The position numbers were made by a program, and so were the translations under genes. DNA of 64,000 bases from Planctomycetota bacterium (lineage in GTDB: Bacteria; Planctomycetota; UBA1135; UBA2386), in NCBI GenBank assembly GCA_050181465.1, contig JBFXDD010000008.1, positions 64,325 to 128,324 of the forward strand, in the 5' to 3' direction. Shown one piece after another: positions 22,944 to 56,961 of the stretch. The number at the start of each line of letters is the position of its first letter. Position 1 is the stretch's first letter. The notes beneath the pieces were generated by a model. The model made no database searches. It saw only the letters and a list, made by a program, of their open reading frames with translations, and was not told the origin of the DNA.

Positions 22944-23514
22944 TCGCAACGTCGTCGCAGCGCGTGCCGGCACGTCCGTGCCGATGCGACGCACGCCGAG
23001 TTCGTGCAGCCCGCGCCAGACCCCGGCATGGTCGGGCGCGCCGAAGAAGCGGAGCTCACGCCCGCAGCTTCACAGCGTCTGACCAGGGCCGTGAGCTGCT
23101 CGCGCAGTGCGGTCGAGAGTTCGCCCCAGCCCTTCCAATCGCTGACCTTGGCCCATCGATCGCGCAGAGCCTTGCTGCGTCGTTCGCGACGGCCAGGCGT
23201 GGACGATCGCCGCTGAGGATCACGGTCACCGCACCGTCTCGGCGTTCACCGTCGGAGTAGCTCGAGAGCATCCAGGCGTACTCTGCGAGTTGCTCGCGAA
23301 GCCGCGCATAGACAGCTTCGCCGTCCGCCTTGATGTCGACGAGCAGCAGGAACGGACGATCGCCGTCGAGCCAGCGACCCCCGCCCGCACGCGCGGCCCG
23401 CGCGAGCGGCTCGAGATACATCGCGCGCAGCGTGCGCTCGGCCCGCAAGTGCGCACGCTCGTGGCCGACGCGGAGTTGGTCGTCGACCAAGAAGACGTCC
23501 GCCTCGACGCTCCC
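22912..23514 (-). pseudogene. PLC-like phosphodiesterase (PI-PLC/GDPD superfamily) remnant, 5'-truncated and frameshifted
   Basis: Homology-like segments lie in three different minus-strand frames:
- SVEADVFLVDDQLRVGHE...FLLLVDIKADG...VTVILSGDRP (track ORF 23056..23490).
- RDRWAKVSDWKGWGELSTALREQLTALVRRCEAAG.
- GRELRFFGAPDHAGVWRGLHELGVRRIGTDVP (ends at TAG 22912-22914).
The N-terminal catalytic region is missing, and similarity starts within 9 nt of the MITE boundary. Confidence 0.6.
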
Positions 23515-23696
23515 TAGCCCGGACTATTCGTGAACGTCGTCGCGAGATCGCCGCAGGTCGATGTCCGGCAAGGAGCTGCGTCGGTCGACGACCGAAGCGT
23601 AGCTGTAGCTACGCTGCCAGGGAGGAGCCGACGTAGCGACGCAGACGGGCGCGACTTGCGGCGATCGCAGCAGACGTTCACGAATAGTCCGGGCTA
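23515..23696 (+). mobile_element. MITE-like element, copy 1 (182 bp)
   Basis: Perfect 24-bp terminal inverted repeats: TAGCCCGGACTATTCGTGAACGTC ... GACGTTCACGAATAGTCCGGGCTA. Central hairpin GCGTAGC-TGTA-GCTACGC (23597-23614). TA at both ends. No coding capacity. Confidence 0.87.
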
Positions 23697-23876
23697 CCCC
23701 GGACTATTCGTGAACGTCGTCGCGAGATCGCCGCAGGTCGATGTCCGGCAAGGAACTGCGTCGGTCGACGACCGAAGCGTAGCTGTAGCTACGCTGCCAG
23801 GGAGGAGCCGACGTAGCGACGCCGCTGGGCGCGACTTGTGGCGATCGCAGTAGACGTGCACGAATAATCCGGGCTA
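23695..23876 (+). mobile_element. MITE-like element, copy 2 (tandem, shares the TA at 23695-23696)
   Basis: It lies exactly 180 bp out of register from copy 1, with only a few substitutions. The 3' inverted repeat carries 2 mismatches (GACGTGCACGAATAATCCGGGCTA). Confidence 0.87.
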
Positions 23877-23879
23877 GGC

Positions 23880-27127: not shown

Positions 27128-27163
27128 CGCCGGTCATTGTGCCGCCGCGACCGTGCCGTGGAC

Positions 27164-27345
27164 TAGCCCGGAAACTTCGTGAACGTCGTCGCGAGATCGA
27201 CGCAGGTCGATGCCCAGGAAGGAGCTGCGTCGGTCGACGACTGAAGCGTAGCTGTAGCTACGGTGCCAGGGAGGAGCCGACGTAGCGACGCCGTCGGGCG
27301 CGACTTGTGGCGATGGCAGTAGACGTTCACGACTGGTCCGGGTTA
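27164..27345 (+). mobile_element. MITE-like element, copy 3
   Basis: 182 bp in the same orientation as copies 1 and 2: TAGCCCGGAAACTTCGTGAACGTC...GACGTTCACGACTGGTCCGGGTTA. It fills most of the 267-bp divergent intergenic region between the sigma gene and the 756-aa gene. Confidence 0.85.
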
Positions 27346-27394
27346 CCGCGACAAAGTTGTCGGTCGTCGGGCCCCGCCTGCGTCCGCCCTCGCG

Positions 27395-29665
27395 ATGAAC
27401 TCGCTGCTCACTCGTTGCCGTTCGCTGCTGGGCTTGGCCGCTGCCTGGACTCTTGGCGGATCTGCAGTCGCCCAGGATCCTGCCGAGCTCGCTCTGCCTG
27501 CCGATACGTTCCGCTTTCGTGGCCATGTCATCGACGATACGCGCGGCGACGGCTGGGTCACCGCGCGCGGCGAGACCTACAAGCTCGAGGCCACCGGAGC
27601 CGAGTTCACGGTCGTCGGACTCTTCGGTCCCGACGCTCCTTCGATGCCGGTGCGGTTCGCGCTTCGATCGGCACGGCTGGGGGAGGCCGACGCGAACCTG
27701 GGCGATCCGGCGTCGCTCCTGCGCCGAGGCGATGGTCACGAACACAGTCGTCTCGAACTGAATCACGGTGACGTTCTCGAGCGCTGGCGGGTGATGGATC
27801 GCAGTCTCGAACAGAGCTTCGTCTTCGGGCGGTCGGTGGTCGGGACCGGCGCGAGCTTGGTCATCGAGGTCGACACGCTCCTGCCCATCCTCGTCGATGG
27901 CGATGGGGTCGCGTTCCCGGCCGGCGACCACGGCACCATTCGCTACCGCGACTTCGCGGTGACCGACGCGATCGGGCAGCGCCGCTCGTTGCCGATTCGC
28001 CTCGACGGACGGCGTATCATCCTTGCGGCCTCCGCGAAGCAACTCGCCGGAATGGTGGAACCGATCGTGTTCGATCCGACGATCACCTTCGTCGGCATCC
28101 GACTCGGGACGACACGCGCGAGGTTCCCGGACGTCGCCGTGGATCCGCTGCATCGTCGGATCGCCGTGTGCTACGAAGAAGTCATCAGTGCCACCGACAC
28201 CGATGTGATGTTCGCGCACTTGAACTCGCAAGGCGGTGTGGTCACGCAGTTCGCGCTCGACAATCGGAGCGTGCGGACCGTGCGGCCGCGCATCGCGAGT
28301 TCACTGCACGGCCAGATGTTCGCGGCTGTGTGGCGGCAAGCCGCCGGGGCAGGCATCGATCGGATCGAATCGAGGCGAATCAGCACGATCGACATGACCG
28401 TGCAGTCGCTACAAACCCTGGCTCAGGCACCGAGCGGGCGGTTCGCGACGGATCCGGACATCGGCGGATCGGTCTCCACCGTGGACACTGCCTTCCTCTT
28501 CGGATTCGGCACCTTCGAGGATGGCGTCTTCCCACGGAACAGCGAGGTGATCGTCGGTGGGCTGAGTAGGGATGGTGTTCGGACCGGGTTGCGCACTCTG
28601 GATTCCGACACGGGTTGCACCTCGCAGCCGCAGGTTGCGGTCAGTCGGCACGGTGGCTCGTTCGGGCAGTTCGGAGTCGTCTACACCCACGGTCGCGGCT
28701 GTCTGTCGAATCAGACCGATATCGCGTTCGCGGTCGTGAACTCGACGACGACTCCCGTCTTCGGCCCGACGCTCGTCGCGACGAACAGCGGTGCCGACCA
28801 GCGGCCCGACGTCGCCGCGATCGACAATCGGTGGTTCGTGGTGTTCGAGCGACTGACGGGCAGCAACAACGACCTGATCGGTGCGGCGTTTCGGTTCGGC
28901 AACGGCGTGTTCACGCGCACCTTCGGGCCGGTGGTCATGAGCGCGCTCGAGCCCGGGGTGAACCTCGCACTCGCTCAGGTGAATCCGTCGATCGACTTCG
29001 ACGGTTGCCGATTCAGCTACGCCTATCGCGAAGGCACGAGCGCGCCGCGCGTGCGCACCGCGACCTTCGCGCTGGCGAGCGATGCGGGGAGCATCCAGTT
29101 CTCGGCCGGCAACGAGCCGATCGACGGCAACACTGCGGATGCCTTCGATACCCCGCGTCTGGCCTTCGGTGGTGAGGAAGTCTCGCGGGCCTTCGTGGCA
29201 TGGACCGGGGGGACCAACAACACCGATGAGGACGTGGTGGGGGCCTTGATCGATGTTGCCGCGGATGGCTTCCCGCCGTTCACCACTCTGCGAACGGGCT
29301 GCGGCACGCGGGGCATTCCGAGCAAGCGGGTGCTGCTCGGCGGTGACCTTGCCGTGATTGGCCGACCCATGACGCTCGTCGTCGATCCGGCGGCCGGATC
29401 GAACGCCATCCTGATCGGACTCGTTGCGCCTTCGCCGCTGCCGTTGTGCGGTGGTGGAGTGGCTCCTTGTCTGCTCGGCGTCGACCCGATTCTGTCGGCG
29501 ATCCAGGGCAACGGAACGCGAGTCGCAGTGCCCTGCGATCCGAACTTGGTTGGGGCGCCGATCGCCGTGCAGGTGGTCGACTTCTTCGTCGGCGGCGGCT
29601 GCGGTGCCGCGGTGTTCGGAGTGCCGCTGACGGTGTCGGACACCCTGGTCGTGCGGCTGCTATGA
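27395..29665 (+). CDS. Secreted hypothetical protein with C-terminal Cys-containing module
   Basis: 756 aa with signal peptide MNSLLTRCRSLLGLAAAWTLGGSAVAQ. Composition is beta-rich and no catalytic motif was recognised. The last ~125 aa resemble the C-terminal module of the 21513..22943 product. Confidence 0.8.
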   Translation: MNSLLTRCRSLLGLAAAWTLGGSAVAQDPAELALPADTFRFRGHVIDDTRGDGWVTARGETYKLEATGAEFTVVGLFGPDAPSMPVRFALRSARLGEADANLGDPASLLRRGDGHEHSRLELNHGDVLERWRVMDRSLEQSFVFGRSVVGTGASLVIEVDTLLPILVDGDGVAFPAGDHGTIRYRDFAVTDAIGQRRSLPIRLDGRRIILAASAKQLAGMVEPIVFDPTITFVGIRLGTTRARFPDVAVDPLHRRIAVCYEEVISATDTDVMFAHLNSQGGVVTQFALDNRSVRTVRPRIASSLHGQMFAAVWRQAAGAGIDRIESRRISTIDMTVQSLQTLAQAPSGRFATDPDIGGSVSTVDTAFLFGFGTFEDGVFPRNSEVIVGGLSRDGVRTGLRTLDSDTGCTSQPQVAVSRHGGSFGQFGVVYTHGRGCLSNQTDIAFAVVNSTTTPVFGPTLVATNSGADQRPDVAAIDNRWFVVFERLTGSNNDLIGAAFRFGNGVFTRTFGPVVMSALEPGVNLALAQVNPSIDFDGCRFSYAYREGTSAPRVRTATFALASDAGSIQFSAGNEPIDGNTADAFDTPRLAFGGEEVSRAFVAWTGGTNNTDEDVVGALIDVAADGFPPFTTLRTGCGTRGIPSKRVLLGGDLAVIGRPMTLVVDPAAGSNAILIGLVAPSPLPLCGGGVAPCLLGVDPILSAIQGNGTRVAVPCDPNLVGAPIAVQVVDFFVGGGCGAAVFGVPLTVSDTLVVRLL

Positions 29666-29709
29666 GCGGCTGCGCTGCGCGTCGACTCCTCGCCGCGTCA
29701 CCCGACTCC

Positions 29710-29891
29710 TAGCCCAGACGTTTCGTGAACGTCTGCTGCGATCGCCGTAACTCGCGACCGGCCGGATCGCTACGTCGGCTCCGCCCCGGCAGCGTAGCCA
29801 CGGCCACGCTTCGGTCCTCCTCCGACGCAGCTCCTTGTCGGGCATCGACCTGCCCCGATCTCGCGACGACGTTCACGAAGAGTTCGGACTC
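29710..29891 (-). mobile_element. MITE-like element, copy 4 (inverted orientation, more diverged)
   Basis: TAGCCCAGACGTTTCGTGAACGTCTGCTGCGATCGCCG... equals the reverse complement of the 3' end of copies 1-3. The far end reads GACGTTCACGAAGAGTTCGGACTC. 182 bp. Confidence 0.8.
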
Positions 29892-30127
29892 GGACGTTCC
29901 GCCGACGCACTTGGCCGAGCTCCGACCACCGACGTGCCCTGGGCAAAGACGTCCGCAGTCCGGGGGTGCTCCCGTGCGCCTCGATCGCCGAGCCTTGCCC
30001 GAGACGTGGCCGCGTCGAGGTGTTGCCGAGCCGCCGCGCCTGCCAGTGCATCGCCGGAGCCGCCGCGCTGGAGTTGAATCTGACGAGCGATCTGCGAGGA
30101 TTCTGCTCGGTTGGTTTGGGAGGCCTC

Positions 30128-31894
30128 GTGAGTCCGCAAGTCTTCATCAGCTACAGCCACGATTCCGCCGCCCACAAGGAGGAGGTGCGCTCCGTCGCGG
30201 ACTTCTTGGCGGAGCACGGTTTCGACGTCATTCTCGACCAGTATGAGGTCGTGCCTGCCGATGGTTGGGCGGCATGGTCGGCGCGAGCGGTGAGTCGTGC
30301 GGACTTCATCCTCGCGATTTGCTCCAGCAAGTACTGCGCTGCCTATGAACCGCTCGATGTCGGGTCGTCGACGGGCCTGGGGGCGGCGTGGGAGGCGCGG
30401 ATGATTCGAACGCGACTATACGAGGGTCGAGCGAGCGGCGGTCGGGTGTTCCCGATCGTGCTCGCCGAATCCGACGTCGACAGTCTCCCGATCGAGCTGC
30501 GTGGTCTGCGCTGGTTCCTGCTGCCGCAGCATGCGGAGGACCTCTTGTGCGCGATGGGAGTAGGACCGTCCCGCGCTGACGAGATCGAACTTCCCGGTGG
30601 TCGGCAACCCTCGACGATCGAGTCGTCCGGCGCGGTCGAGGCATCGACCGAACGAGTACCCGAAGTCGCACCCGCGACGGTGGCCCCTCTCTCCGGCGTG
30701 ACCCGTTGGCTCGCAGCAGCCGTGGTCACCGCCGGGTTGTTCGCGGCACTTGTCTGGCGTCCCGGGACGGCGAGAGAACTGGAGCTGACTTCGGCAGACG
30801 AGAGGCAAACTCCCGTTGCGCTGACGCCCAGTCCCGCGGAGATCTCGCCGCTTGGCGATCACCTGGTGACTTTGCATGCCGAGCCACCGCTACGATCCCT
30901 CGCGATCGCGGACTGTGAGGTCGAGTATGACGCAACGCGTCAGTCGTGGACGCTTCGCTGGCGTGGAGATCTCGAGCCTCGCGAACTTCGTTTGCCCTGG
31001 CATGGAACCACAGCGAGCGGATCGCCGGCATCCGGCGAGCTACGAATGAACCTTCGGTATCGCTCGCGTGCCCCGGTCGGCTTTCGGATCGAGATCGATG
31101 ATCCGATGGATCGGGGGTTCGCGCGCTGTGTCACTCACCTGGCCAGCGGCATACGCCTGCGCCTGTGCCCCGCCGGCGAGTACTCCCTGGGATCCGACGA
31201 GCGGGAAGACGAGCCCCGTCGAACGATTCGACTGGACGAACCCTTCTATCTCGGCGAGACGGAGGTCACCGTTGCGCAATGGAGGGCATTCGCCGTCGCG
31301 TCGGGTTACCAGTCGACCGCGGAACGCAGTGGTTCGGGCGGCGTGACGTTGATCGACGGCGAGTGGACGCAGCGTCAGGAAGTGCACTGGCGGACGCCGA
31401 TGCTCCATGAGGCATACGTGAACTCGGATTCTCATCCGGTCGCGCAGATCGCCTTCGACGATGCCCTGGCGTTCTGCCAGCACTACGGGCTGCGGCTGCC
31501 GAACGAGGAGGAGTGGGAGATCGCGTGCCGCGCCGGCTCCACGACCACCTTCTGGTGGGGTGACGAGGAGGTCGCGGCGTTGGATCGAGCGAACATCGCC
31601 GATGCGTCGCTGGCGCCGTTCTACCCCGCCGGCGAATTCTTCGGAGTTCGCGATCACGCACCGTTCCTCGCGCCGGTGGCCGCTTCGATGCCCAACGACT
31701 TCCACCTGTTCGACATGATCGGGAACGTGTGGGAGTGGTGCGACAACCGCGGCAGTCGATCACAACGTTGGGCGCTGCGCGGGGGCTCGTGGGCCAGCCG
31801 ACCGTCGTCGGCTCGGGCTTCCAATCGGCTGGACAACCTTCGTGAAGCCAGAAGCGATGTGATCGGATTCCGAGTCGCCGCGAATCCCGACTGA
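30128..31894 (+). CDS. SEFIR/TIR-fold domain, single TM helix, then FGE-sulfatase (SUMF1-like) domain protein
   Basis: GTG 30128 is preceded by GGGAGG (30118-30123).
- N-terminus: VFISYSHDSAAHKEEVRSVADFLAEHGFDVILDQYE...ADFILAICSSKYC (SEFIR/TIR pattern).
- TM: WLAAAVVTAGLFAALVW (about 30704-30757).
- C-terminus from about 31145: RLPNEEEWEIACRAG, GNVWEWCDN, LRGGSWAS...IGFRVA. Confidence 0.85.
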   Translation: MSPQVFISYSHDSAAHKEEVRSVADFLAEHGFDVILDQYEVVPADGWAAWSARAVSRADFILAICSSKYCAAYEPLDVGSSTGLGAAWEARMIRTRLYEGRASGGRVFPIVLAESDVDSLPIELRGLRWFLLPQHAEDLLCAMGVGPSRADEIELPGGRQPSTIESSGAVEASTERVPEVAPATVAPLSGVTRWLAAAVVTAGLFAALVWRPGTARELELTSADERQTPVALTPSPAEISPLGDHLVTLHAEPPLRSLAIADCEVEYDATRQSWTLRWRGDLEPRELRLPWHGTTASGSPASGELRMNLRYRSRAPVGFRIEIDDPMDRGFARCVTHLASGIRLRLCPAGEYSLGSDEREDEPRRTIRLDEPFYLGETEVTVAQWRAFAVASGYQSTAERSGSGGVTLIDGEWTQRQEVHWRTPMLHEAYVNSDSHPVAQIAFDDALAFCQHYGLRLPNEEEWEIACRAGSTTTFWWGDEEVAALDRANIADASLAPFYPAGEFFGVRDHAPFLAPVAASMPNDFHLFDMIGNVWEWCDNRGSRSQRWALRGGSWASRPSSARASNRLDNLREARSDVIGFRVAANPD

Positions 31895-31927: not shown

Positions 31928-32923
31928 GTGAAGCGTCTCCGTCGCATCATCCTACTCACGTTCGTCGGTCTGGCCGCGGCGATCGGCGTCGCCTGGCTCG
32001 CCAGCCTCGTTTCCCTCTGGCCGGTAGTCCTGCTCGTGAGGTTCACGTTCGACCGCGGTGCAATCGCCGCGAGCGAAGCCCTGCTGCCGCATGTGCCACC
32101 GAGCGTCCGCGCCGAACTCGATGTCGAGTATCGCACACACCCGCGCCGCCGTGCCCTCGACGTCTACCTGCCGCCGTCGGACGAGCGCGATGCCGAGCTT
32201 CGAACGATCGTCTGGATTCACGGCGGGGGTTTCGTCTCCGGGACGAAGGCGCAAGTCGGCAACTATGCGCGCATCCTCGCCGGTCGAGGTTTCGCGGTCG
32301 TGGCGGTCGACTACTCCATCGCACCGGAAGCGACCCATCCGCAGCCGGTCCTGGAAGTCGACGCCGCACTCCGATTCCTCGGTAGCGAGGCCCGTCGCTG
32401 GTCGCTCGATACGAAGCGGCTCGTCCTCGCCGGCGATTCGGCCGGTTCCCACATCGCTGCGCAGCTCGCGCTCGCACATGTCGATTTCGACTATCGCGAG
32501 CGACTCGGGCTGGAAGTTCTGCCGGTGGGCGTTGCGATCGCCGGGCTCGTGCTCTGCTGCGGGATCTTCGATCCGCCCGCGCTCGACTTCGAAGGCGAGC
32601 TCGGTTGGTTCCTGCGCACCGCGGCCTGGGCTTACGCCGGTCGCAAGGACTTTGCCGAGGATGCGACCTTCGCACTCACCGCACTGCCGCGGTTTCTACC
32701 GCGCGGGATGCCGCCGGTGTTCCTGACGGCCGGCAACGCCGATCCGCTCCTGCCCCAATCGCTTGCCTTCGCCGATGCCTTGCGCGCTCGCGACGGCCGG
32801 GTGGAGACCTTGTTCTTCCCGGCCCAGCGCGCACCCGCGCTCGGTCACGAGTATCAGTTCAACTTGGACGATGCCGGCCGCGAGGCGCTCGAAGCCATCG
32901 TGCGATTCGTGGCCTCGCTCTGA
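31928..32923 (+). CDS. Alpha/beta hydrolase (HSL-type esterase/lipase) with N-terminal anchor
   Basis: Oxyanion motif WIHGGGF, nucleophile elbow GDSAGS, N-terminal hydrophobic helix. GTG start. Confidence 0.88.
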   Translation: MKRLRRIILLTFVGLAAAIGVAWLASLVSLWPVVLLVRFTFDRGAIAASEALLPHVPPSVRAELDVEYRTHPRRRALDVYLPPSDERDAELRTIVWIHGGGFVSGTKAQVGNYARILAGRGFAVVAVDYSIAPEATHPQPVLEVDAALRFLGSEARRWSLDTKRLVLAGDSAGSHIAAQLALAHVDFDYRERLGLEVLPVGVAIAGLVLCCGIFDPPALDFEGELGWFLRTAAWAYAGRKDFAEDATFALTALPRFLPRGMPPVFLTAGNADPLLPQSLAFADALRARDGRVETLFFPAQRAPALGHEYQFNLDDAGREALEAIVRFVASL

Positions 32924-34513: not shown

Positions 34514-34579
34514 GACCGGCGGTTGAATCGCCGCGCGGAGACGGCAGAATCCCCAGCCCCCGTCGCGCGACGACCTCGC

Positions 34580-34666
34580 GGAGAGGTGCCAGAGCGGCTG
34601 ATCGGGACAGTCTCGAAAACTGTTGTGGCCGCGAGGCCACCGGGGGTTCGAATCCCCCCCTCTCCG
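34580..34666 (+). tRNA. tRNA-Ser (anticodon CGA)
   Basis: Cloverleaf: acceptor GGAGAGG/CCTCTCC, anticodon arm ACAGT-CTCGAAA-ACTGT, long variable arm, T-arm GGGGG-TTCGAAT-CCCCC, discriminator G. CCA is not encoded. Confidence 0.93.
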
Positions 34667-34670
34667 TCCT

Positions 34671-44495: not shown

Positions 44496-44714
44496 GCGGT
44501 TGAGGGTGGTGCTCGGTTGGGGCGGTGTGATCGCGTAGGCGAAGACTCGCGAGTGTCACCAGTGAATCGGGCGGCGGCCCCCCTGGTTGTCGGCTTGCCG
44601 AATCGCGAGTAGCCTTCTCTTGGTCCGCGGCGATACGCGGCGGTGAAGGCATCCTGGCGTTCTCTGCTTCTGCGTTCGCCGGGATTGGATTCGACCTGAA
44701 TCCGGCAGTCGTCC

Positions 44715-45314
44715 ATGAGCAGCGATGAGGAGTTGGCCCACGCACTCGATGCGTTGCGGATCGCGAAGCGACGAAGATTCCGCGATCCGGCGGACCTGGA
44801 GGACATTCTCCAGGATGTGGCGATGCGATTCGTTCGGGCCGTTGCGAGGGGAGTGATCGTACGCTCACCCCTCGCGTTTCTCCGGGAAGCGTGGCCGACG
44901 GAGTTCGCGCGCTGGTTGCGGTCGCGGATGAGGTCGACTGGACGAGCCTCTCGAGGTCTGGATGAACTTCCGGAGTTCGTGGTCGACGACTCACTGGAGA
45001 GCCCGACCGAGTCGCGGATTCGAGCTGCGGGGTATCGGCTACCCGAGCCGCTTCGAAGCTGGTTCGACGACCTCCTCTCCGGCAGGAGTGATGCTGCGCT
45101 CGCGGCAAGAGATGGCGTGAGTGAAGCGGCGATTCGCCGGCGTTGGCGGCGACTGCGCGCGCACTTCGAGACGGCGAGCACCCTGGAGGATTTCCTAGAA
45201 CTACCGCTTACAAATCCGGCGACAAGTGCATCTATGGGGGTGGAAGCGACCGATTCGCAGTCGATCGTCGAAGTCCCCAGTCCCCAGTCCCCAGTCCCAG
45301 ATCCCGAGCCGTGA
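44715..45314 (+). CDS. Divergent sigma-70/ECF-like protein
   Basis: Region-2-like DPADLEDILQDVAMRFVRA...FARWLRSR and region-4-like LPEPLRSWFDDLLSGRSDAALAARDGVSEAAIRRRWRRLRAHF. Pro/Ser-rich tail. The assignment is tentative. Confidence 0.55.
   Translation: MSSDEELAHALDALRIAKRRRFRDPADLEDILQDVAMRFVRAVARGVIVRSPLAFLREAWPTEFARWLRSRMRSTGRASRGLDELPEFVVDDSLESPTESRIRAAGYRLPEPLRSWFDDLLSGRSDAALAARDGVSEAAIRRRWRRLRAHFETASTLEDFLELPLTNPATSASMGVEATDSQSIVEVPSPQSPVPDPEP
45273..45299 (+). repeat. Heptanucleotide tandem repeat (GTCCCCA x3 plus a 6-nt partial unit)
   Basis: GTCCCCA GTCCCCA GTCCCCA GTCCCA lies inside the last 14 codons of the sigma-like gene (encoding VPSPQSPVP). Confidence 0.85.
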
Positions 45315-45726
45315 ATTGCCCGCAGACTGATGCCCGCCGTCATCCAGCCCGTCTCGGGCATGGCTCGTCGCGACGCTTCGGGCTCTGCGAGAGTTCGCCA
45401 ACGGCATCGGGTCGCTGGAGAATCGGATCGAAGTTCGCAGGGAAGCGGTCGATCCGCGCTCGCCACACTTGCCCGGGCCTCGTTCCAGTCGGGGCTGGCC
45501 GCTTCATGGCATCCGTCGGACCTGTCGGGTCGATTGGTCCGCTCGTCACGACAGGATGTCCGGAGCCTGTCCTGGGGCATTCTTCCAGCAGCTCACCTTC
45601 GAGCCGTTGTCGGAAGCAACCGGACGATACCGAACACAGTCGGTGCGAATCTGGCGCGAACGCGAGTGATCATGCGTTGGCAGGACGCCGGATCGACTCA
45701 ATGCCGCGTGGAGGAGGTCGGAAACC

Positions 45727-46608
45727 GTGAAGGCAACCACCATCGCGTGGAGGCTTGTCGCTGCCGGCGCCGTGATGATCGCGCTCGCGCTAGCTGTGGC
45801 TGCTGCTCTTCAAGGCGACAGGGCGGGCTCGGATCCAAACGCGGTGCGGGTCGCGGAACACGCGGAAGTGGGATCACAGGGCGCGAGCCATCCCAAGGAA
45901 CATGAGCGGTCGAGACCTCACGTGTTGGGCCGATCTGAACTCCCGGTAGAGGGAGCGGTGACGCCCGCGAATCCTCTGGAAGGAACGCCCCCCGCGGAGA
46001 TGCCTCCAGTTGCCGCGGGCTCCAAGTCTTCGGACGAAGCCTCGGAAGATGGAATCGAGGAAGCGCTGGCTTGGATTCGAGAGAGCTGGCGCTGCGATGA
46101 GTTCGCCCGGTGGGTTCTGGAGAATCACCCGGTGTCGAGCGATTCTGCGTACGCGATTTCGGAGTCAGACGCCAGATTTGCTCACGAGTGCGCGACGTTC
46201 GCCCTCTCAGGAGTCTACCGTACTTTTCTCCTCAGCGATCGCTTCCTTCGCGAGAGCGAGACCGAGATCCAGGAAAGCAACTACAGAACTCCTCGTCAGA
46301 AGGAGGCAGCCCTCGCGCATATTCGTAGTCAATCCGATGCGTATATAGCGCTTTTCTCGATGCTTCCGTCGATCCAATCCAAGATTGAATCGGGGGAAAT
46401 CGTTGCCAAAATACGACGAGTCTCGTTGACGTCCGGGAGGTTTCCCGACAAGGTTGGAGCGAAGGTAAACGTCGTGGATATCGACGTGAGAGCGAGAATG
46501 GCTTTATTTGCTCAACGATCGGGCAGTTGGGAGGTGTCCTTTCTCATTCCTGCTCAACTCTTCGATTCGGTCCATCGAGAGCGGCTGTTCCCCTTATCCG
46601 GCAGGTAG
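45727..46608 (+). CDS. Membrane-anchored hypothetical protein, paralog 1
   Basis: GTG start with N-terminal helix WRLVAAGAVMIALALAVAAAL. The conserved C-terminal ~175 aa (ALAWIRESWRCDEFARWVL, ARFAHECATFALSGV, GRFPDKVGAKVNVVDID, RERLFP) are shared with 47412..48299. The 3' half is visibly AT-richer. Confidence 0.7.
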   Translation: MKATTIAWRLVAAGAVMIALALAVAAALQGDRAGSDPNAVRVAEHAEVGSQGASHPKEHERSRPHVLGRSELPVEGAVTPANPLEGTPPAEMPPVAAGSKSSDEASEDGIEEALAWIRESWRCDEFARWVLENHPVSSDSAYAISESDARFAHECATFALSGVYRTFLLSDRFLRESETEIQESNYRTPRQKEAALAHIRSQSDAYIALFSMLPSIQSKIESGEIVAKIRRVSLTSGRFPDKVGAKVNVVDIDVRARMALFAQRSGSWEVSFLIPAQLFDSVHRERLFPLSGR

Positions 46609-46702
46609 TAAGCCGCCGCAGAGGGATTATCCCGAGGGCGCGTTCTTTGTGCAAAGCACAGAGTTTGCGTCCTCATTCACCAGTCAGACAAGGAGTACCG
46701 AA

Positions 46703-47281
46703 ATGCTAACCAAAGTGATAATTACTTGTGTGCCGATCGCCTTGGCTCTCCCAGACGTGAAGCCATCGACCAACCCGCGGCTTGCAACCGAGATCATGCA
46801 GCAGGATTGTGGCTGTGCCTTGCAAGGATGGTCTTCGGGCAGCTTCTCCAACGGATACTCAATTGATATCACGGAATTCGGGGCTTCCGCTGGAGTTGAG
46901 ATCACTTTCGGTAAGAGTGTGCAACTTTCGGAGGACAGGTGTAACTCCGAGTGTGTGCCGTCCGGCCAGGGGTGTGGATTGATCGCAAAGTTCAACATTA
47001 CGGACTTCGGCTCCTTGCCGGGTGGGAAGATATGCGTACCACTTGCGTCGCCGGCCTTCTTCCCCCTTTGTACAACCTCAAGCGTCGGCTCGCTTTACGA
47101 GTGCTGTCGGAGCGGTCAGGACACCGTGGGGCTCGAGTGGCACCTCGAGACGGGGTGCGGCGGTTCGCTGTCTGGAAACGCGCAGCTCTCGGCGGAGATC
47201 GATGGGAACGGGTTCCAGCCGCTCGTCGCGAGTGTCGCATTCGGCTTCGACTGCACCCCGTGTGTGGTGACGCCGAACTGA
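46703..47281 (+). CDS. Cysteine-rich secreted hypothetical protein
   Basis: ATG 46703 with a strong SD, AAGGAG (46690-46695). 192 aa with 13 Cys and a hydrophobic N-terminus (MLTKVIITCVPIALALP). It lies in the lowest-GC part of the window (104/200 G+C for 46681-46880 by hand count). Confidence 0.7.
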   Translation: MLTKVIITCVPIALALPDVKPSTNPRLATEIMQQDCGCALQGWSSGSFSNGYSIDITEFGASAGVEITFGKSVQLSEDRCNSECVPSGQGCGLIAKFNITDFGSLPGGKICVPLASPAFFPLCTTSSVGSLYECCRSGQDTVGLEWHLETGCGGSLSGNAQLSAEIDGNGFQPLVASVAFGFDCTPCVVTPN

Positions 47282-47411
47282 TGCCCTGCAGGTGGGGTGT
47301 GCGGGAACCCTCGGGAAATCCGGCCAGCTCAGGTGCGGGTTGGCCGGCTTCAGCTCCAGGCTGGGGATCGATGCCTGGTCGCGGTCGGCTCACCGAGGTA
47401 CCGTAACGAAG

Positions 47412-48299
47412 GTGAGTGCATCCGCTGGTAGTCACCGGGCACTGGTTGCGGGCATCGTGCTTGCGGCCGTCGCCGCGGCCTTGGGACACGCCTTCGGAAC
47501 GGGCTCGGAGAGCGGAGTTCCCATCGCTGTTCCGAGCGTGGTACTGATGGCGCCGATCGCGGCGGAGGCCCTGCCTCAAAGGGTGAGACTCGAGCCGGAG
47601 AAAACGCCATCGGTCCAAGAAGAGGTCGACGCCGAGGAGCGTCCGAGCGACGAGATCTGCACCGTGGCTACGGCGGACGAGACTCAGACTCCGGACACCG
47701 ACGAAGTGTCGTCGATCGCTGAGGAGCCGGAAGTGGCGCCGGAGGATGTGCTGGCTTGGGTCCGCGAGAGTTGGAGTTGCGATGAATTCACCAAGTGGGT
47801 GCTCGATCACCGTCCGGTTGCTGATCTTCCCGAGGGATACCCCATCACGGCGGTTGATGCACGGTTCGCCCATGAGTGCGCGACGTTCGCGCTGTCGGGG
47901 GTCTTCCGGCGCTTTGTGCTGAGCGAGCGACTGTTCGCGGAAATGGTCACCGATGCCGTGCAACGCAACATCGATCGGCCACGCGTCCGGGAGCTTGCGC
48001 TCTCGTTACTTCGCGAAGAGGCCCTCGCCTACAAGGCGCTTGCCGCGATCCTGCCAACCCTCCAAGCCGGCATTCGTTCTGGGGCTGTAGAAGTACGACT
48101 CCTACGAAGGCCTTTGTTGTCCGGGCGTTACCCCGACAAGGTCGGGGCCAAGATCAATAGTGTGGACGTCGATCCCAGACGACGGACGGTCTTATTTACT
48201 GCGCGGTCGGGCCCCTGGGAGATCTCTCTCCTTGTTCCCGCGCTGCTGTTCGACCCTGCCGATCGGGAGCGGTTGTTTCCGGCGTCGACGCAGAAGTGA
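47412..48299 (+). CDS. Membrane-anchored hypothetical protein, paralog 2
   Basis: GTG 47412 with helix ALVAGIVLAAVAAALGHAF. The C-terminal domain aligns with paralog 1 (VLAWVRESWSCDEFTKWVL, ARFAHECATFALSGV, GRYPDKVGAKINSVDVD, RERLFP). GC is host-like. Confidence 0.75.
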   Translation: MSASAGSHRALVAGIVLAAVAAALGHAFGTGSESGVPIAVPSVVLMAPIAAEALPQRVRLEPEKTPSVQEEVDAEERPSDEICTVATADETQTPDTDEVSSIAEEPEVAPEDVLAWVRESWSCDEFTKWVLDHRPVADLPEGYPITAVDARFAHECATFALSGVFRRFVLSERLFAEMVTDAVQRNIDRPRVRELALSLLREEALAYKALAAILPTLQAGIRSGAVEVRLLRRPLLSGRYPDKVGAKINSVDVDPRRRTVLFTARSGPWEISLLVPALLFDPADRERLFPASTQK

Positions 48300-48568
48300 G
48301 CCGGTGTCGGGAAGCTGCAAGAGGGAACCTGCAACCAGAAATCACTGCCGGAGTCCGTTCGACCAGGGTAGGCCGGTTTGGATGGGAGGTCGTCTCGGGT
48401 AGCTCGAGAGGTCCTGGCGCGCAGGGGTTGCGTCCGAACCGCCCGGCCTTCGCCCGACATCGAGGACCGGCGGGACTCCGGTGCGACCATGCGGGGCGGT
48501 TCGCGTCCGTGCGGCACCCCTCGGCGTGAGGCGCCCGGGGAAGTCAGGGCACCGGCCCTCTTCCTCCG

Positions 48569-48949
48569 ATGAAGGACGGCGTGAGACGCATCCTTCGGTC
48601 CTGGTCGCTCGGGAGCGCCGTGCTCGCCCTCTTGGCCGGCTGCGCGATCGAGCCGCAAGACCCCCGATCGGGCGTGCGTTCTCGCAATCCGATGGCTTGG
48701 AGTACGACGCCGCTGCCGAGTGCCGCGAGCGTCGCGGCTTGGGACGGGACTGCCGTGCGTCTGCTCGAACTCCTGGAGGGTGCGACCCTCGCCGGCGAAG
48801 ACTTCGTCGCCGGGCTGGCCTGGGAGCGGCTGCGGCGAAGGCTCGTGACGGAGCCGCGCCTCGCCGCCCACTGGGAGGACCGCCTCGCCCGCTCGGCACC
48901 GCGCGACCTTCCGGAGCCGGTCTCGATTCCGGCCGCGCCGAAGCGCTGA
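48569..48949 (+). CDS. Lipoprotein, hypothetical
   Basis: MKDGVRRILRSWSLGSAVLALLAGC with lipobox LLAGC. 126 aa. Confidence 0.6.
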   Translation: MKDGVRRILRSWSLGSAVLALLAGCAIEPQDPRSGVRSRNPMAWSTTPLPSAASVAAWDGTAVRLLELLEGATLAGEDFVAGLAWERLRRRLVTEPRLAAHWEDRLARSAPRDLPEPVSIPAAPKR

Positions 48950-56892: not shown

Positions 56893-56955
56893 GCCCGCAG
56901 TCTTCGTGAGCGGCGTCGCGAGATCGCCGCAGACGTTCACGAATGGTTCGGGTTA
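56893..56955 (+). repeat. Internally deleted derivative of the 182-bp MITE-like element
   Basis: GCCCGCAGTCTTCGTGAGCGGCGTCGCGAGATCGCCGCA joined directly to GACGTTCACGAATGGTTCGGGTTA. Both element ends are present and the central ~120 bp are absent. Confidence 0.72.
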
Positions 56956-56961
56956 GGGAGG

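Follow-up and report, generated by a model that had tools for sequence, protein, structure and literature searches.

The 64,000-nucleotide stretch of DNA analysed here (hereafter the window) comes from a Planctomycetota bacterium (assembly GCA_050181465.1, contig JBFXDD010000008.1, positions 64,325 to 128,324) and carries, at 30128-31894 on the + strand, a complete gene encoding 588 residues plus a stop codon. Its product (hereafter the query) consists of a SEFIR domain, a linker, a predicted transmembrane (TM) segment, a beta-rich spacer and a Cys-less domain of the FGE-sulfatase family, named after the formylglycine-generating enzymes (FGE). Judging from its sequence, the query is best filed as the TM-coupled SEFIR form of a known class of proteins that join an N-terminal effector to a C-terminal sensor of the FGE/C-type lectin (CLec) type. 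The limits of the gene are well defined. Within a frame that is open from stop to stop between 29966 and 31894, the supported start is the GTG at 30128, four nt 3' of a Shine-Dalgarno-like GGGAGG (30118-30123, +) visible in the sequence itself. A gene call made independently on a 314-kb contig of the metagenome-assembled genome GCA_050249675.1 gives the same start and an identical 588-aa product, and this start agrees with the N-termini of SEFIR homologues, which lie 5-10 residues ahead of the VFISYSHD strand. In a whole-protein AlphaFold2 (AF2) model computed from an 81-row alignment, confidence is high at residues 1-145 and 335-588 and low at 150-246. An exhaustive representative search returned one full-length orthologue (P0083), which is 42% identical in a single alignment spanning residues 35 to 584 and has the same layout.

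The N-terminal domain (residues 4-140, 30137-30547, +), which is predicted to be cytoplasmic, belongs to the STIR superfamily according to Pfam, PADLOC, AF2 and Foldseek. A preliminary description of this DNA had assigned the N-terminal ~130 residues to the SEFIR/TIR fold, a claim borne out by significant profile and fold matches for residues 1-150, with SEFIR fitting better than TIR. The Pfam SEFIR profile (PF08357) matches residues 4-140 at E=8e-12 and 46.1 bits (cut-off 23) over positions 2-147 of its 150, and TIR_2 matches residues 5-133 with a slightly better E-value (9.5e-15) but with only 109 of its 122 positions covered. The bSEFIR profile of PADLOC matches at E=2.2e-28, the aligned part comprising only positions 39-161 of 412. 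Sequence matches in the Protein Data Bank (PDB) are the Bacillus cereus SEFIR domain (5y8e, 1e-8), the SEFIR domain of Act1 (0.04) and, as the best TIR domain, one at 0.38. When a separate AF2 model of residues 2-151, with a mean predicted local distance difference test (pLDDT) of 84.6, was submitted to Foldseek, 5y8e ranked first, followed by the SEFIR domains of the IL-17RA/RB/Act1 helical assembly 9ot1 (TM-score up to 0.77); the top seven matches were all SEFIR structures, and TIR-STING, SPARTA TIR-APAZ and SARM1 ranked after them. Within the STIR superfamily, the domain is thus better named SEFIR.

The residues that are invariant in 16 sequences of the SEFIR subfamily (F6, S8, Y9, S10, D12, D37, P43, Y69, G85, E89, P109 and P121) are all kept in the query. 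Two of them deserve attention, D37 in the LDQYE motif (30236-30238, +) and E89 in the G-x-G-x-x-W-E motif (30392-30394, +), the latter standing at the start of helix alphaC in the AF2 models. TIR NADases carry a glutamate in helix alphaC, and E89 is by analogy a candidate catalytic residue. The equivalent Glu is kept in B. cereus SEFIR (GVGTE) and replaced in human Act1 SEFIR (GLHTKYIH), which is consistent with a catalytic role specific to bacteria. As for D37, it may be the equivalent of Asp D40 at the interface of bSEFIR, an anti-phage protein in which the D40A substitution, picked as an interface mutation, abolished defence (10.1101/2022.05.11.491447).

The SEFIR domain is followed by a low-complexity linker (residues 141-193, 30548-30706, +), predicted to be cytoplasmic and disordered (pLDDT below 50 in AF2), whose sequence is not conserved in the orthologue. 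It leads to a single predicted TM segment, WLAAAVVTAGLFAALVW (residues 194-210, 30707-30757, +), which has an Arg on either side and was delimited by hydropathy and by alignment with the orthologue. This segment is, to within one residue, the one that had been proposed at 30704-30757 (residues 193-210, RWLAAAVVTAGLFAALVW), and it corresponds to the sole Kyte-Doolittle peak of the protein (residues 191-209), which at 1.82 over 19 residues is above the usual 1.6 threshold. The insertion energy of WLAAAVVTAGLFAALVW, an approximate sum of biological-hydrophobicity values, is ~-0.4 kcal/mol, like that of proteins in which a kinase precedes the TM and FGE domains, whereas soluble SEFIR-FGE proteins score at least +10. 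At the same aligned position, the orthologue has a stronger TM segment of 19-20 residues (LGLWILAISIPAILLVAVL), with RR on its N-side. The query is most likely a type-II single-pass inner-membrane protein, for which an N-in/C-out topology is predicted because it has no N-terminal signal peptide, a prediction supported by the fact that its FGE domain is closest to FGE domains that are secreted or anchored by a kinase-TM module. The earlier proposal that the two domains face opposite sides of the membrane thus holds as a prediction, with one hydrophobic segment separating them.

Beyond the membrane, residues ~247-330 (30866-31117, +) are predicted to form an extracytoplasmic beta-rich spacer (strands in AF2, pLDDT 50-70), which has no Pfam match at E<=1 and aligns with the orthologue, including a common RYRSRAP motif. 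It is followed by the FGE-sulfatase domain (residues 335-588, 31130-31891, +), which has a C-type-lectin-like fold, is likewise predicted to be extracytoplasmic, and was recognised by Pfam, PDB and Foldseek comparisons. This domain had been anticipated in the preliminary description, whose quoted motifs were all found in place: Pfam FGE-sulfatase (PF03781) matches residues 347-584 at E=2.1e-44, FGEs of the PDB match at 2e-18, AF2 pLDDT exceeds 90, and Foldseek TM-scores are 0.72-0.77 to human, Streptomyces and Thermomonospora FGE at 27-30% identity. The structures of PvdO, CarF, EgtB, OvsA, TvpA and PorK rank below true FGEs, and over this domain NCBIfam yields sub-threshold matches only, to EgtB, GldK, SenA and PvdO.

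The missing catalytic Cys pair, which had also been pointed out before, could be confirmed at the level of residues. In place of the catalytic Cys-x4-Cys loop of true FGEs, the query has the loop GGSWASRPSSARASNR (residues 552-567, 31781-31828, +). Alignment to Streptomyces FGE (6muj/2q17) reads RGGSWASRPS---SARASNR for the query, with WASRPS--- opposite YLCHDSYCN, and the first copper-binding catalytic Cys is thereby replaced by Ser while the second falls in the 3-residue deletion. The catalytic cysteines are absent from the orthologue too, where the loop is GASWGSRPSTARAANR (RGASWGSRPSTARAANR). Since the copper-binding pair is lost, the domain cannot make formylglycine. We also considered a sensor diversified by a diversity-generating retroelement (DGR), which was rejected: no cognate (template) repeat of the gene's 3' 494 nt occurs in the window, where neither a paralogue nor, among its genes, a reverse transcriptase was found.

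The affinities of the FGE domain are informative. After the orthologue (52% identity over this domain), its next relatives are the signal-peptide proteins P0185, P0174 and P0002 (39-41% identity, 179-191 bits) and the kinase-TM-FGE proteins P0155 and P0099 (37-42% identity); together, these signal-peptide and kinase-TM-anchored relatives score 160-191 bits. The FGE domains of soluble SEFIR-FGE proteins are only 27-29% identical to that of the query, at 84-96 bits.

How common is this design? FGE-sulfatase relatives are extremely numerous (101,641 at E<=1e-3 in the representative library), and our first homology search gave 81 clusters. Ten of these combine SEFIR and FGE domains, namely the query, seven soluble proteins of ~420-520 aa, one SEFIR-NACHT-FGE protein and one SEFIR-kinase-FGE protein. 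TIR or TIR_2 accompanies the FGE domain in 13 clusters, four of which (P0024, P0035, P0049 and P0080) have a strong internal TM, and a kinase does so in 14, with an internal TM in 11. Among 39 long open reading frames (ORFs) with an FGE domain, sampled from genome and metagenome loci, there were 11 kinases, six caspases and two NACHT proteins. Scans of GTDB-representative genomes and JGI metagenomes returned only relatives of the FGE domain, in which the usable patterns lay, and a word-indexed search with the SEFIR region alone gave three matches. C-terminal FGE domains on kinases, caspases, NACHT and TIR proteins are common, often behind a TM helix. The architecture of the query is less distinctive than it seemed at first: an effector followed by an optional TM and a C-terminal FGE domain is a recurrent and already recognised theme, and the rare part is the combination of SEFIR with a TM, which was found in two proteins, the query and its orthologue.

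Some of these relatives are noteworthy in their own right. P0024 (903 aa) reads as TIR-TM-caspase-FGE, with the caspase predicted outside, and in P0012 (966 aa) an N-terminal anchor precedes a caspase and two FGE domains. At locus L052 (3549-11606), a TIR_2-TM-FGE gene shares its cluster with a RyR-domain protein, an RHS-like protein and two further TIR proteins, and downstream of another TIR-TM-FGE gene come a second FGE protein and then a PDDEXK_9 ATPase. The acidobacterial genes for soluble SEFIR-FGE proteins (L049 8001-9269, L050 5456-6724 and L056 6424-7707) are found in a variable slot that has tsaD on one side and a beta-CASP RNase on the other, and the different small genes beside them (XisH/XisI pairs, a UPF0175 antitoxin-like gene) suggest an insertion hotspot. 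The gene of cyanobacterial type adjoins glycosyltransferases. On the orthologue's contig (ENA ERZ17174936), a SEFIR N-terminus (VFVSYSHDS...) lies in frame 5' of the called start (L048 1477-1577); this 3.7-kb contig has different neighbours from the window, and no conserved neighbour is common to the window, the orthologue and the seven relatives with neighbourhoods examined. Sulfatase genes, adjacency to which had been set as a test that would speak for a maturation enzyme, were seen beside none of these genes, the query's included.

The query gene lies in core chromosome. The first part of the window encodes L17, dnaE, an aminotransferase, a large DUF7133/FG-GAP/cytochrome-c protein, a major facilitator superfamily transporter, sulfotransferases and a beta-lactamase-fold protein. 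Closer to the query gene lie a Ser/Thr kinase with a planctomycete-type extracytoplasmic function (ECF) sigma factor, and then a secreted protein of 756 aa that belongs to no family. Beyond the query gene come a BD-FAE esterase, OTCase, tadA, two tRNA-Ser genes, the signal recognition particle (SRP) RNA, dnaX and a TonB_C protein, and further downstream ybaB, recR, hrpB, rpoN, hpf, components of the phosphotransferase system (PTS) and pilM/pilO. The 64 kb contain no sulfatase, STAND NTPase, Argonaute, ThsA-like or SIR2 gene and nothing else that could be recognised as a defence gene, which extends to the whole window the earlier remark that canonical partners are missing nearby, and no linked NTP-dependent core of the vWA-MoxR, STAND or GTPase kind. 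When the 41 proteins of the window were run through PADLOC, the only matches were bSEFIR (the query) and generic ones of PD-T4-6/Stk2 kinase and mad6/MkoA type; the tool does not report matches per member, and the Ser/Thr kinase next door presumably accounts for the kinase matches and a helicase for the others. The idea of a defence-island context was rejected on these grounds. In terms of composition, the G+C content at third codon positions is 0.75 in the query gene against 0.77-0.88 in its neighbours, a mildly low value that is not decisive as a signal of foreign DNA.

The gene immediately downstream (31928-32923, +) starts 33 nt after the query's stop codon and encodes a membrane-anchored alpha/beta hydrolase (BD-FAE/Abhydrolase_3 in Pfam) with its own N-terminal membrane anchor. 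No terminator-like site was found between the two genes, which may be co-transcribed, although membership of the hydrolase in the same system is uncertain. The esterase half of P0062, a secreted esterase-FGE fusion, shows 29% identity to the hydrolase (7e-20), and P0078 is another such fusion. The pairing of the two genes is absent from the orthologue's contig and was seen in only one of 126 other FGE loci, and the esterase was rejected as a conserved operon partner on this basis.

Several other features of the window were recorded. An intergenic repeat of ~185 nt forms one long imperfect hairpin, with ends CTAGCCCGGA..TTCGTGAACGTC and GACGTTCACGAA..TCCGGGCTAG. Its copies (23513-23698, 23693-23878 and 27163-27347, +; 29707-29894, -; plus a mini copy at ~56900-56960) are ~85-95% identical, and a 12-mer is seen 10 times against 0.65 expected. 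The RNA fold of the repeat reaches -102 kcal/mol (z=-6.6) and has no match in Rfam; the element looks MITE- or REP-like (miniature inverted-repeat transposable element or repetitive extragenic palindrome). Four of the five copies are concentrated in a 6.4-kb region around the query gene, the 756-aa gene and the kinase/ECF operon. The copy at 29707-29894 (-) occupies the intergenic region 5' of the query gene, 234 nt upstream of its start, and is mentioned as context only. The 756-aa protein (27395-29665, +), bracketed by two inverted copies, has an N-terminal signal-like sequence, matches nothing in Pfam and lacks homologues in all loci fetched. A tRNA gene at 34579-34669 (+) narrowly passes the Rfam gathering threshold for tRNA-Sec (51.3 vs 47 bits) and is tRNA-Ser(CGA) according to ARAGORN; it adjoins tRNA-Ser(GGA) and the SRP RNA, and is most likely an ordinary tRNA-Ser with a long variable arm. 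Between the PTS genes and pilM, the region ~44500-48900 has a lower G+C content (0.60 at 46-48 kb), and its long ORFs (45727-46605, 46508-47278 and 47292-48296) have no Pfam match.

What might the query do? The reading that we favour, although we hold it tentatively and at somewhat less than even odds, is by analogy that of a receptor that senses the outside and in which ligand-driven clustering activates a cytoplasmic SEFIR NADase. The SEFIR domain would reside in the cytoplasm, and the spacer and FGE domain in the periplasm. At rest, the effector would be held inactive as a monomer or dimer. The non-catalytic FGE fold, displayed on a beta-sandwich stalk, would bind a ligand derived from a phage, a competitor or the envelope, and clustering of ectodomains by this ligand would assemble SEFIR oligomers. 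Clustered SEFIR domains would then cleave NAD+, as reported for bSEFIR and TIR domains, or else signal as adaptors, and the ensuing NAD+ depletion or signalling nucleotide would cause growth arrest or abortive infection, with no partner gene needed. A more ambitious version, which is possible but which we regard as doubtful, would make the query an outside-in pattern-recognition receptor: molecules of phages, predators or competitors would be detected at the cell surface, before genome entry, by its lectin-fold ectodomain, clustering would relay the signal through the single TM helix to the SEFIR NADase in the cytoplasm, and the whole would be an independently assembled counterpart of IL-17 receptors (IL-17R) and Toll-like receptors (TLR).

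A number of observations weigh against an outside-sensing NADase receptor. The gene sits in a core-chromosome context, not in a defence island. The catalytic assignment of E89 comes from its conservation and its position in helix alphaC, not from a structure-based alignment to a proven NADase, and both the topology of the query and any immune or NADase function are predictions. The hydrophobic core of the putative TM is short (17 residues) and Ala-rich, AF2 builds no helix at residues 190-210 (pLDDT ~30), and the positive-inside rule favours neither orientation, with a single Arg N-terminal to the segment and two C-terminal to it. The orthologue has an in-frame TGA inside its SEFIR domain (L048 1563-1565), either a sequencing error, its contig having 5x coverage, or the mark of a pseudogene. 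Finally, the nine other SEFIR-FGE clusters (P0004-P0009, P0018, P0019 and P0023) have no TM, and the pairing therefore also works within one compartment. Some of these points would fit a soluble cytoplasmic sensor-effector resembling the 420-520-aa SEFIR-FGE proteins of Acidobacteria and cyanobacteria, in which the hydrophobic stretch would be no membrane helix at all. We nevertheless find this very improbable, for the hydropathy peak clears the usual threshold, an unambiguous TM occupies this position in the orthologue, and the FGE domain falls in the secreted/TM-anchored clade rather than in that of the soluble SEFIR-FGE proteins. As for a genuine FGE maturing sulfatases, the closest solved structures are indeed true FGEs (28-30% identity, TM-score ~0.75), but both copper-binding cysteines are missing in the query and its orthologue and no sulfatase gene occurs in the window or in any neighbourhood examined, which refutes this role at the sequence level and leaves its probability negligible.

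The query could also be a non-enzymatic TM signalling adaptor, in other words the SEFIR counterpart of the common Ser/Thr-kinase-TM-FGE receptors, using its SEFIR domain as a homotypic interaction module (as in IL-17R/Act1) that recruits a stand-alone SEFIR protein of ~200 aa or another partner, with an output in any physiology and not necessarily in immunity. This is unlikely in our opinion, though several points favour it. Bacterial SEFIR was first proposed as a general interaction module, D40A being an interface mutation (10.1101/2022.05.11.491447), kinase-TM-FGE is the commonest format for the query's FGE clade, and the genomic context is that of housekeeping genes. Possible partners exist, too, since a profile of the SEFIR subfamily finds 992 relatives, and each of the best 120 is a short protein with SEFIR only and no TM. 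However, there is no second SEFIR or TIR gene within the window, the invariant Glu is kept in bacterial SEFIR and not in the human signalling one, and bSEFIR is described as an NAD+-depleting effector (10.1101/2024.02.11.579819). A further possibility, which we rate as quite improbable, is that the extracytoplasmic part works with the downstream BD-FAE esterase on an envelope or extracellular polymer, either as an enzyme in the manner of PvdO, EgtB and CalU17 or as a substrate-binding module, with SEFIR serving as anchor or regulator. The closeness of this membrane-anchored hydrolase on the same strand, with no terminator-like site in between, would fit, as would the secreted esterase-FGE fusions P0062 and P0078 and the existence of FGE-fold proteins that are enzymes other than FGE. 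Against it stand the rarity of the gene pairing and its absence beside the orthologue, and a Pfam search of the query found no DinB/iron-site domain as in EgtB or OvoA; besides, FGE domains are fused so promiscuously to many partners that a single esterase fusion is weak evidence.

To our knowledge, nearly all characterised bacterial NAD+-depleting defences based on TIR, SEFIR or SIR2 sense infection inside the cell. If the outside-sensing receptor reading is correct, the query would offer an example, open to testing, in which sensing at the surface is coupled with an effector of the abortive-infection type, and would provide a function for the very large and mostly unexplained population of non-catalytic FGE-sulfatase domains found outside the membrane on kinases, caspases and TIR proteins. 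If the query is instead an adaptor or an envelope enzyme, it would be an ordinary member of a planctomycete-style receptor repertoire.

The most obvious point of comparison is bSEFIR, a single-gene anti-phage system (Millman et al., 2022; PADLOC PDLC03957) that protects B. subtilis from phi29 (10.1101/2022.05.11.491447) and is described as depleting NAD+ by means of the SEFIR domain at its N-terminus (10.1101/2024.02.11.579819). Both proteins begin with a bacterial SEFIR domain in which the conserved motifs are the same, and both are single polypeptides with a presumably sensing, non-SEFIR C-terminal region and no need for a partner gene. The query, however, shows no full-length similarity to the ~400-aa bSEFIR that would include the C-terminal region, its own C-terminal two-thirds being a TM, a beta spacer and an FGE domain, and it lies outside defence islands; because of these differences in C-terminal region and genomic context, it is not a canonical bSEFIR member. 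The soluble SEFIR-FGE proteins (P0004-P0009 from Acidobacteria and P0019 of cyanobacterial type) share the domain pair and its order, with SEFIR domains 36-42% identical, but lack the TM and the beta spacer, and their FGE domains belong to another, shorter clade that keeps a cysteine (CRSA). Since the FGE clades differ (27-29% identity), the SEFIR-FGE fusion of the query appears to have arisen independently.

Alike in overall design are the TIR_2-TM-FGE proteins (P0035, P0049, P0080 and P0024) and the Ser/Thr-kinase-TM-FGE proteins (P0099, P0155 and others), which also present a cytoplasmic module, one TM and a C-terminal FGE domain predicted to be extracytoplasmic, with a kinase or a canonical TIR as the module where the query has SEFIR; no experimental characterisation of these receptors was found in the literature searched. 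More generally, C-terminal FGS domains, whose partner domains are all N-terminal, have been proposed to be invader-binding modules, and membrane-associated versions to intercept invaders at entry (Kaur et al., 2020; PMC7159879). CLec/FGE sensors, including targets of DGRs, are predicted to be cytoplasmic or periplasmic (Dore et al., 2024; PMC10907252), and FGE-sulfatase sensors on STANDs have been shown (2026 Nature paper, PMC13581612). With these conflict systems and DGR targets, the query has in common a non-catalytic C-terminal FGE fold, found there with TIR, caspase and NACHT partners and in both cytoplasmic and periplasmic placements. Unlike them, it has in the window no vWA-MoxR or STAND partner, no DGR reverse transcriptase and no template repeat. 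SEFIR is not mentioned as an FGS partner by Kaur et al. (2020), and no co-mention of SEFIR with FGE-sulfatase or formylglycine was found in the literature searched.

The last comparison is with metazoan IL-17R and TLR, to which the query had been likened at the outset. As far as can be predicted for the query, the receptor logic is shared: an extracellular ligand-binding domain, one TM and a STIR domain in the cytoplasm whose mode of action is oligomerisation. The animal receptors have the reverse polarity, type I instead of the type II predicted for the query, and the ectodomains are unrelated, FGE/CLec on one side and fibronectin type III (FnIII) or leucine-rich repeat (LRR) domains on the other; furthermore, Act1 SEFIR lacks the invariant Glu of its bacterial counterparts. 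The likeness is one of architecture and by analogy, not evidence of orthology, and it allows bacterial and animal SEFIR receptors to be compared more sharply.

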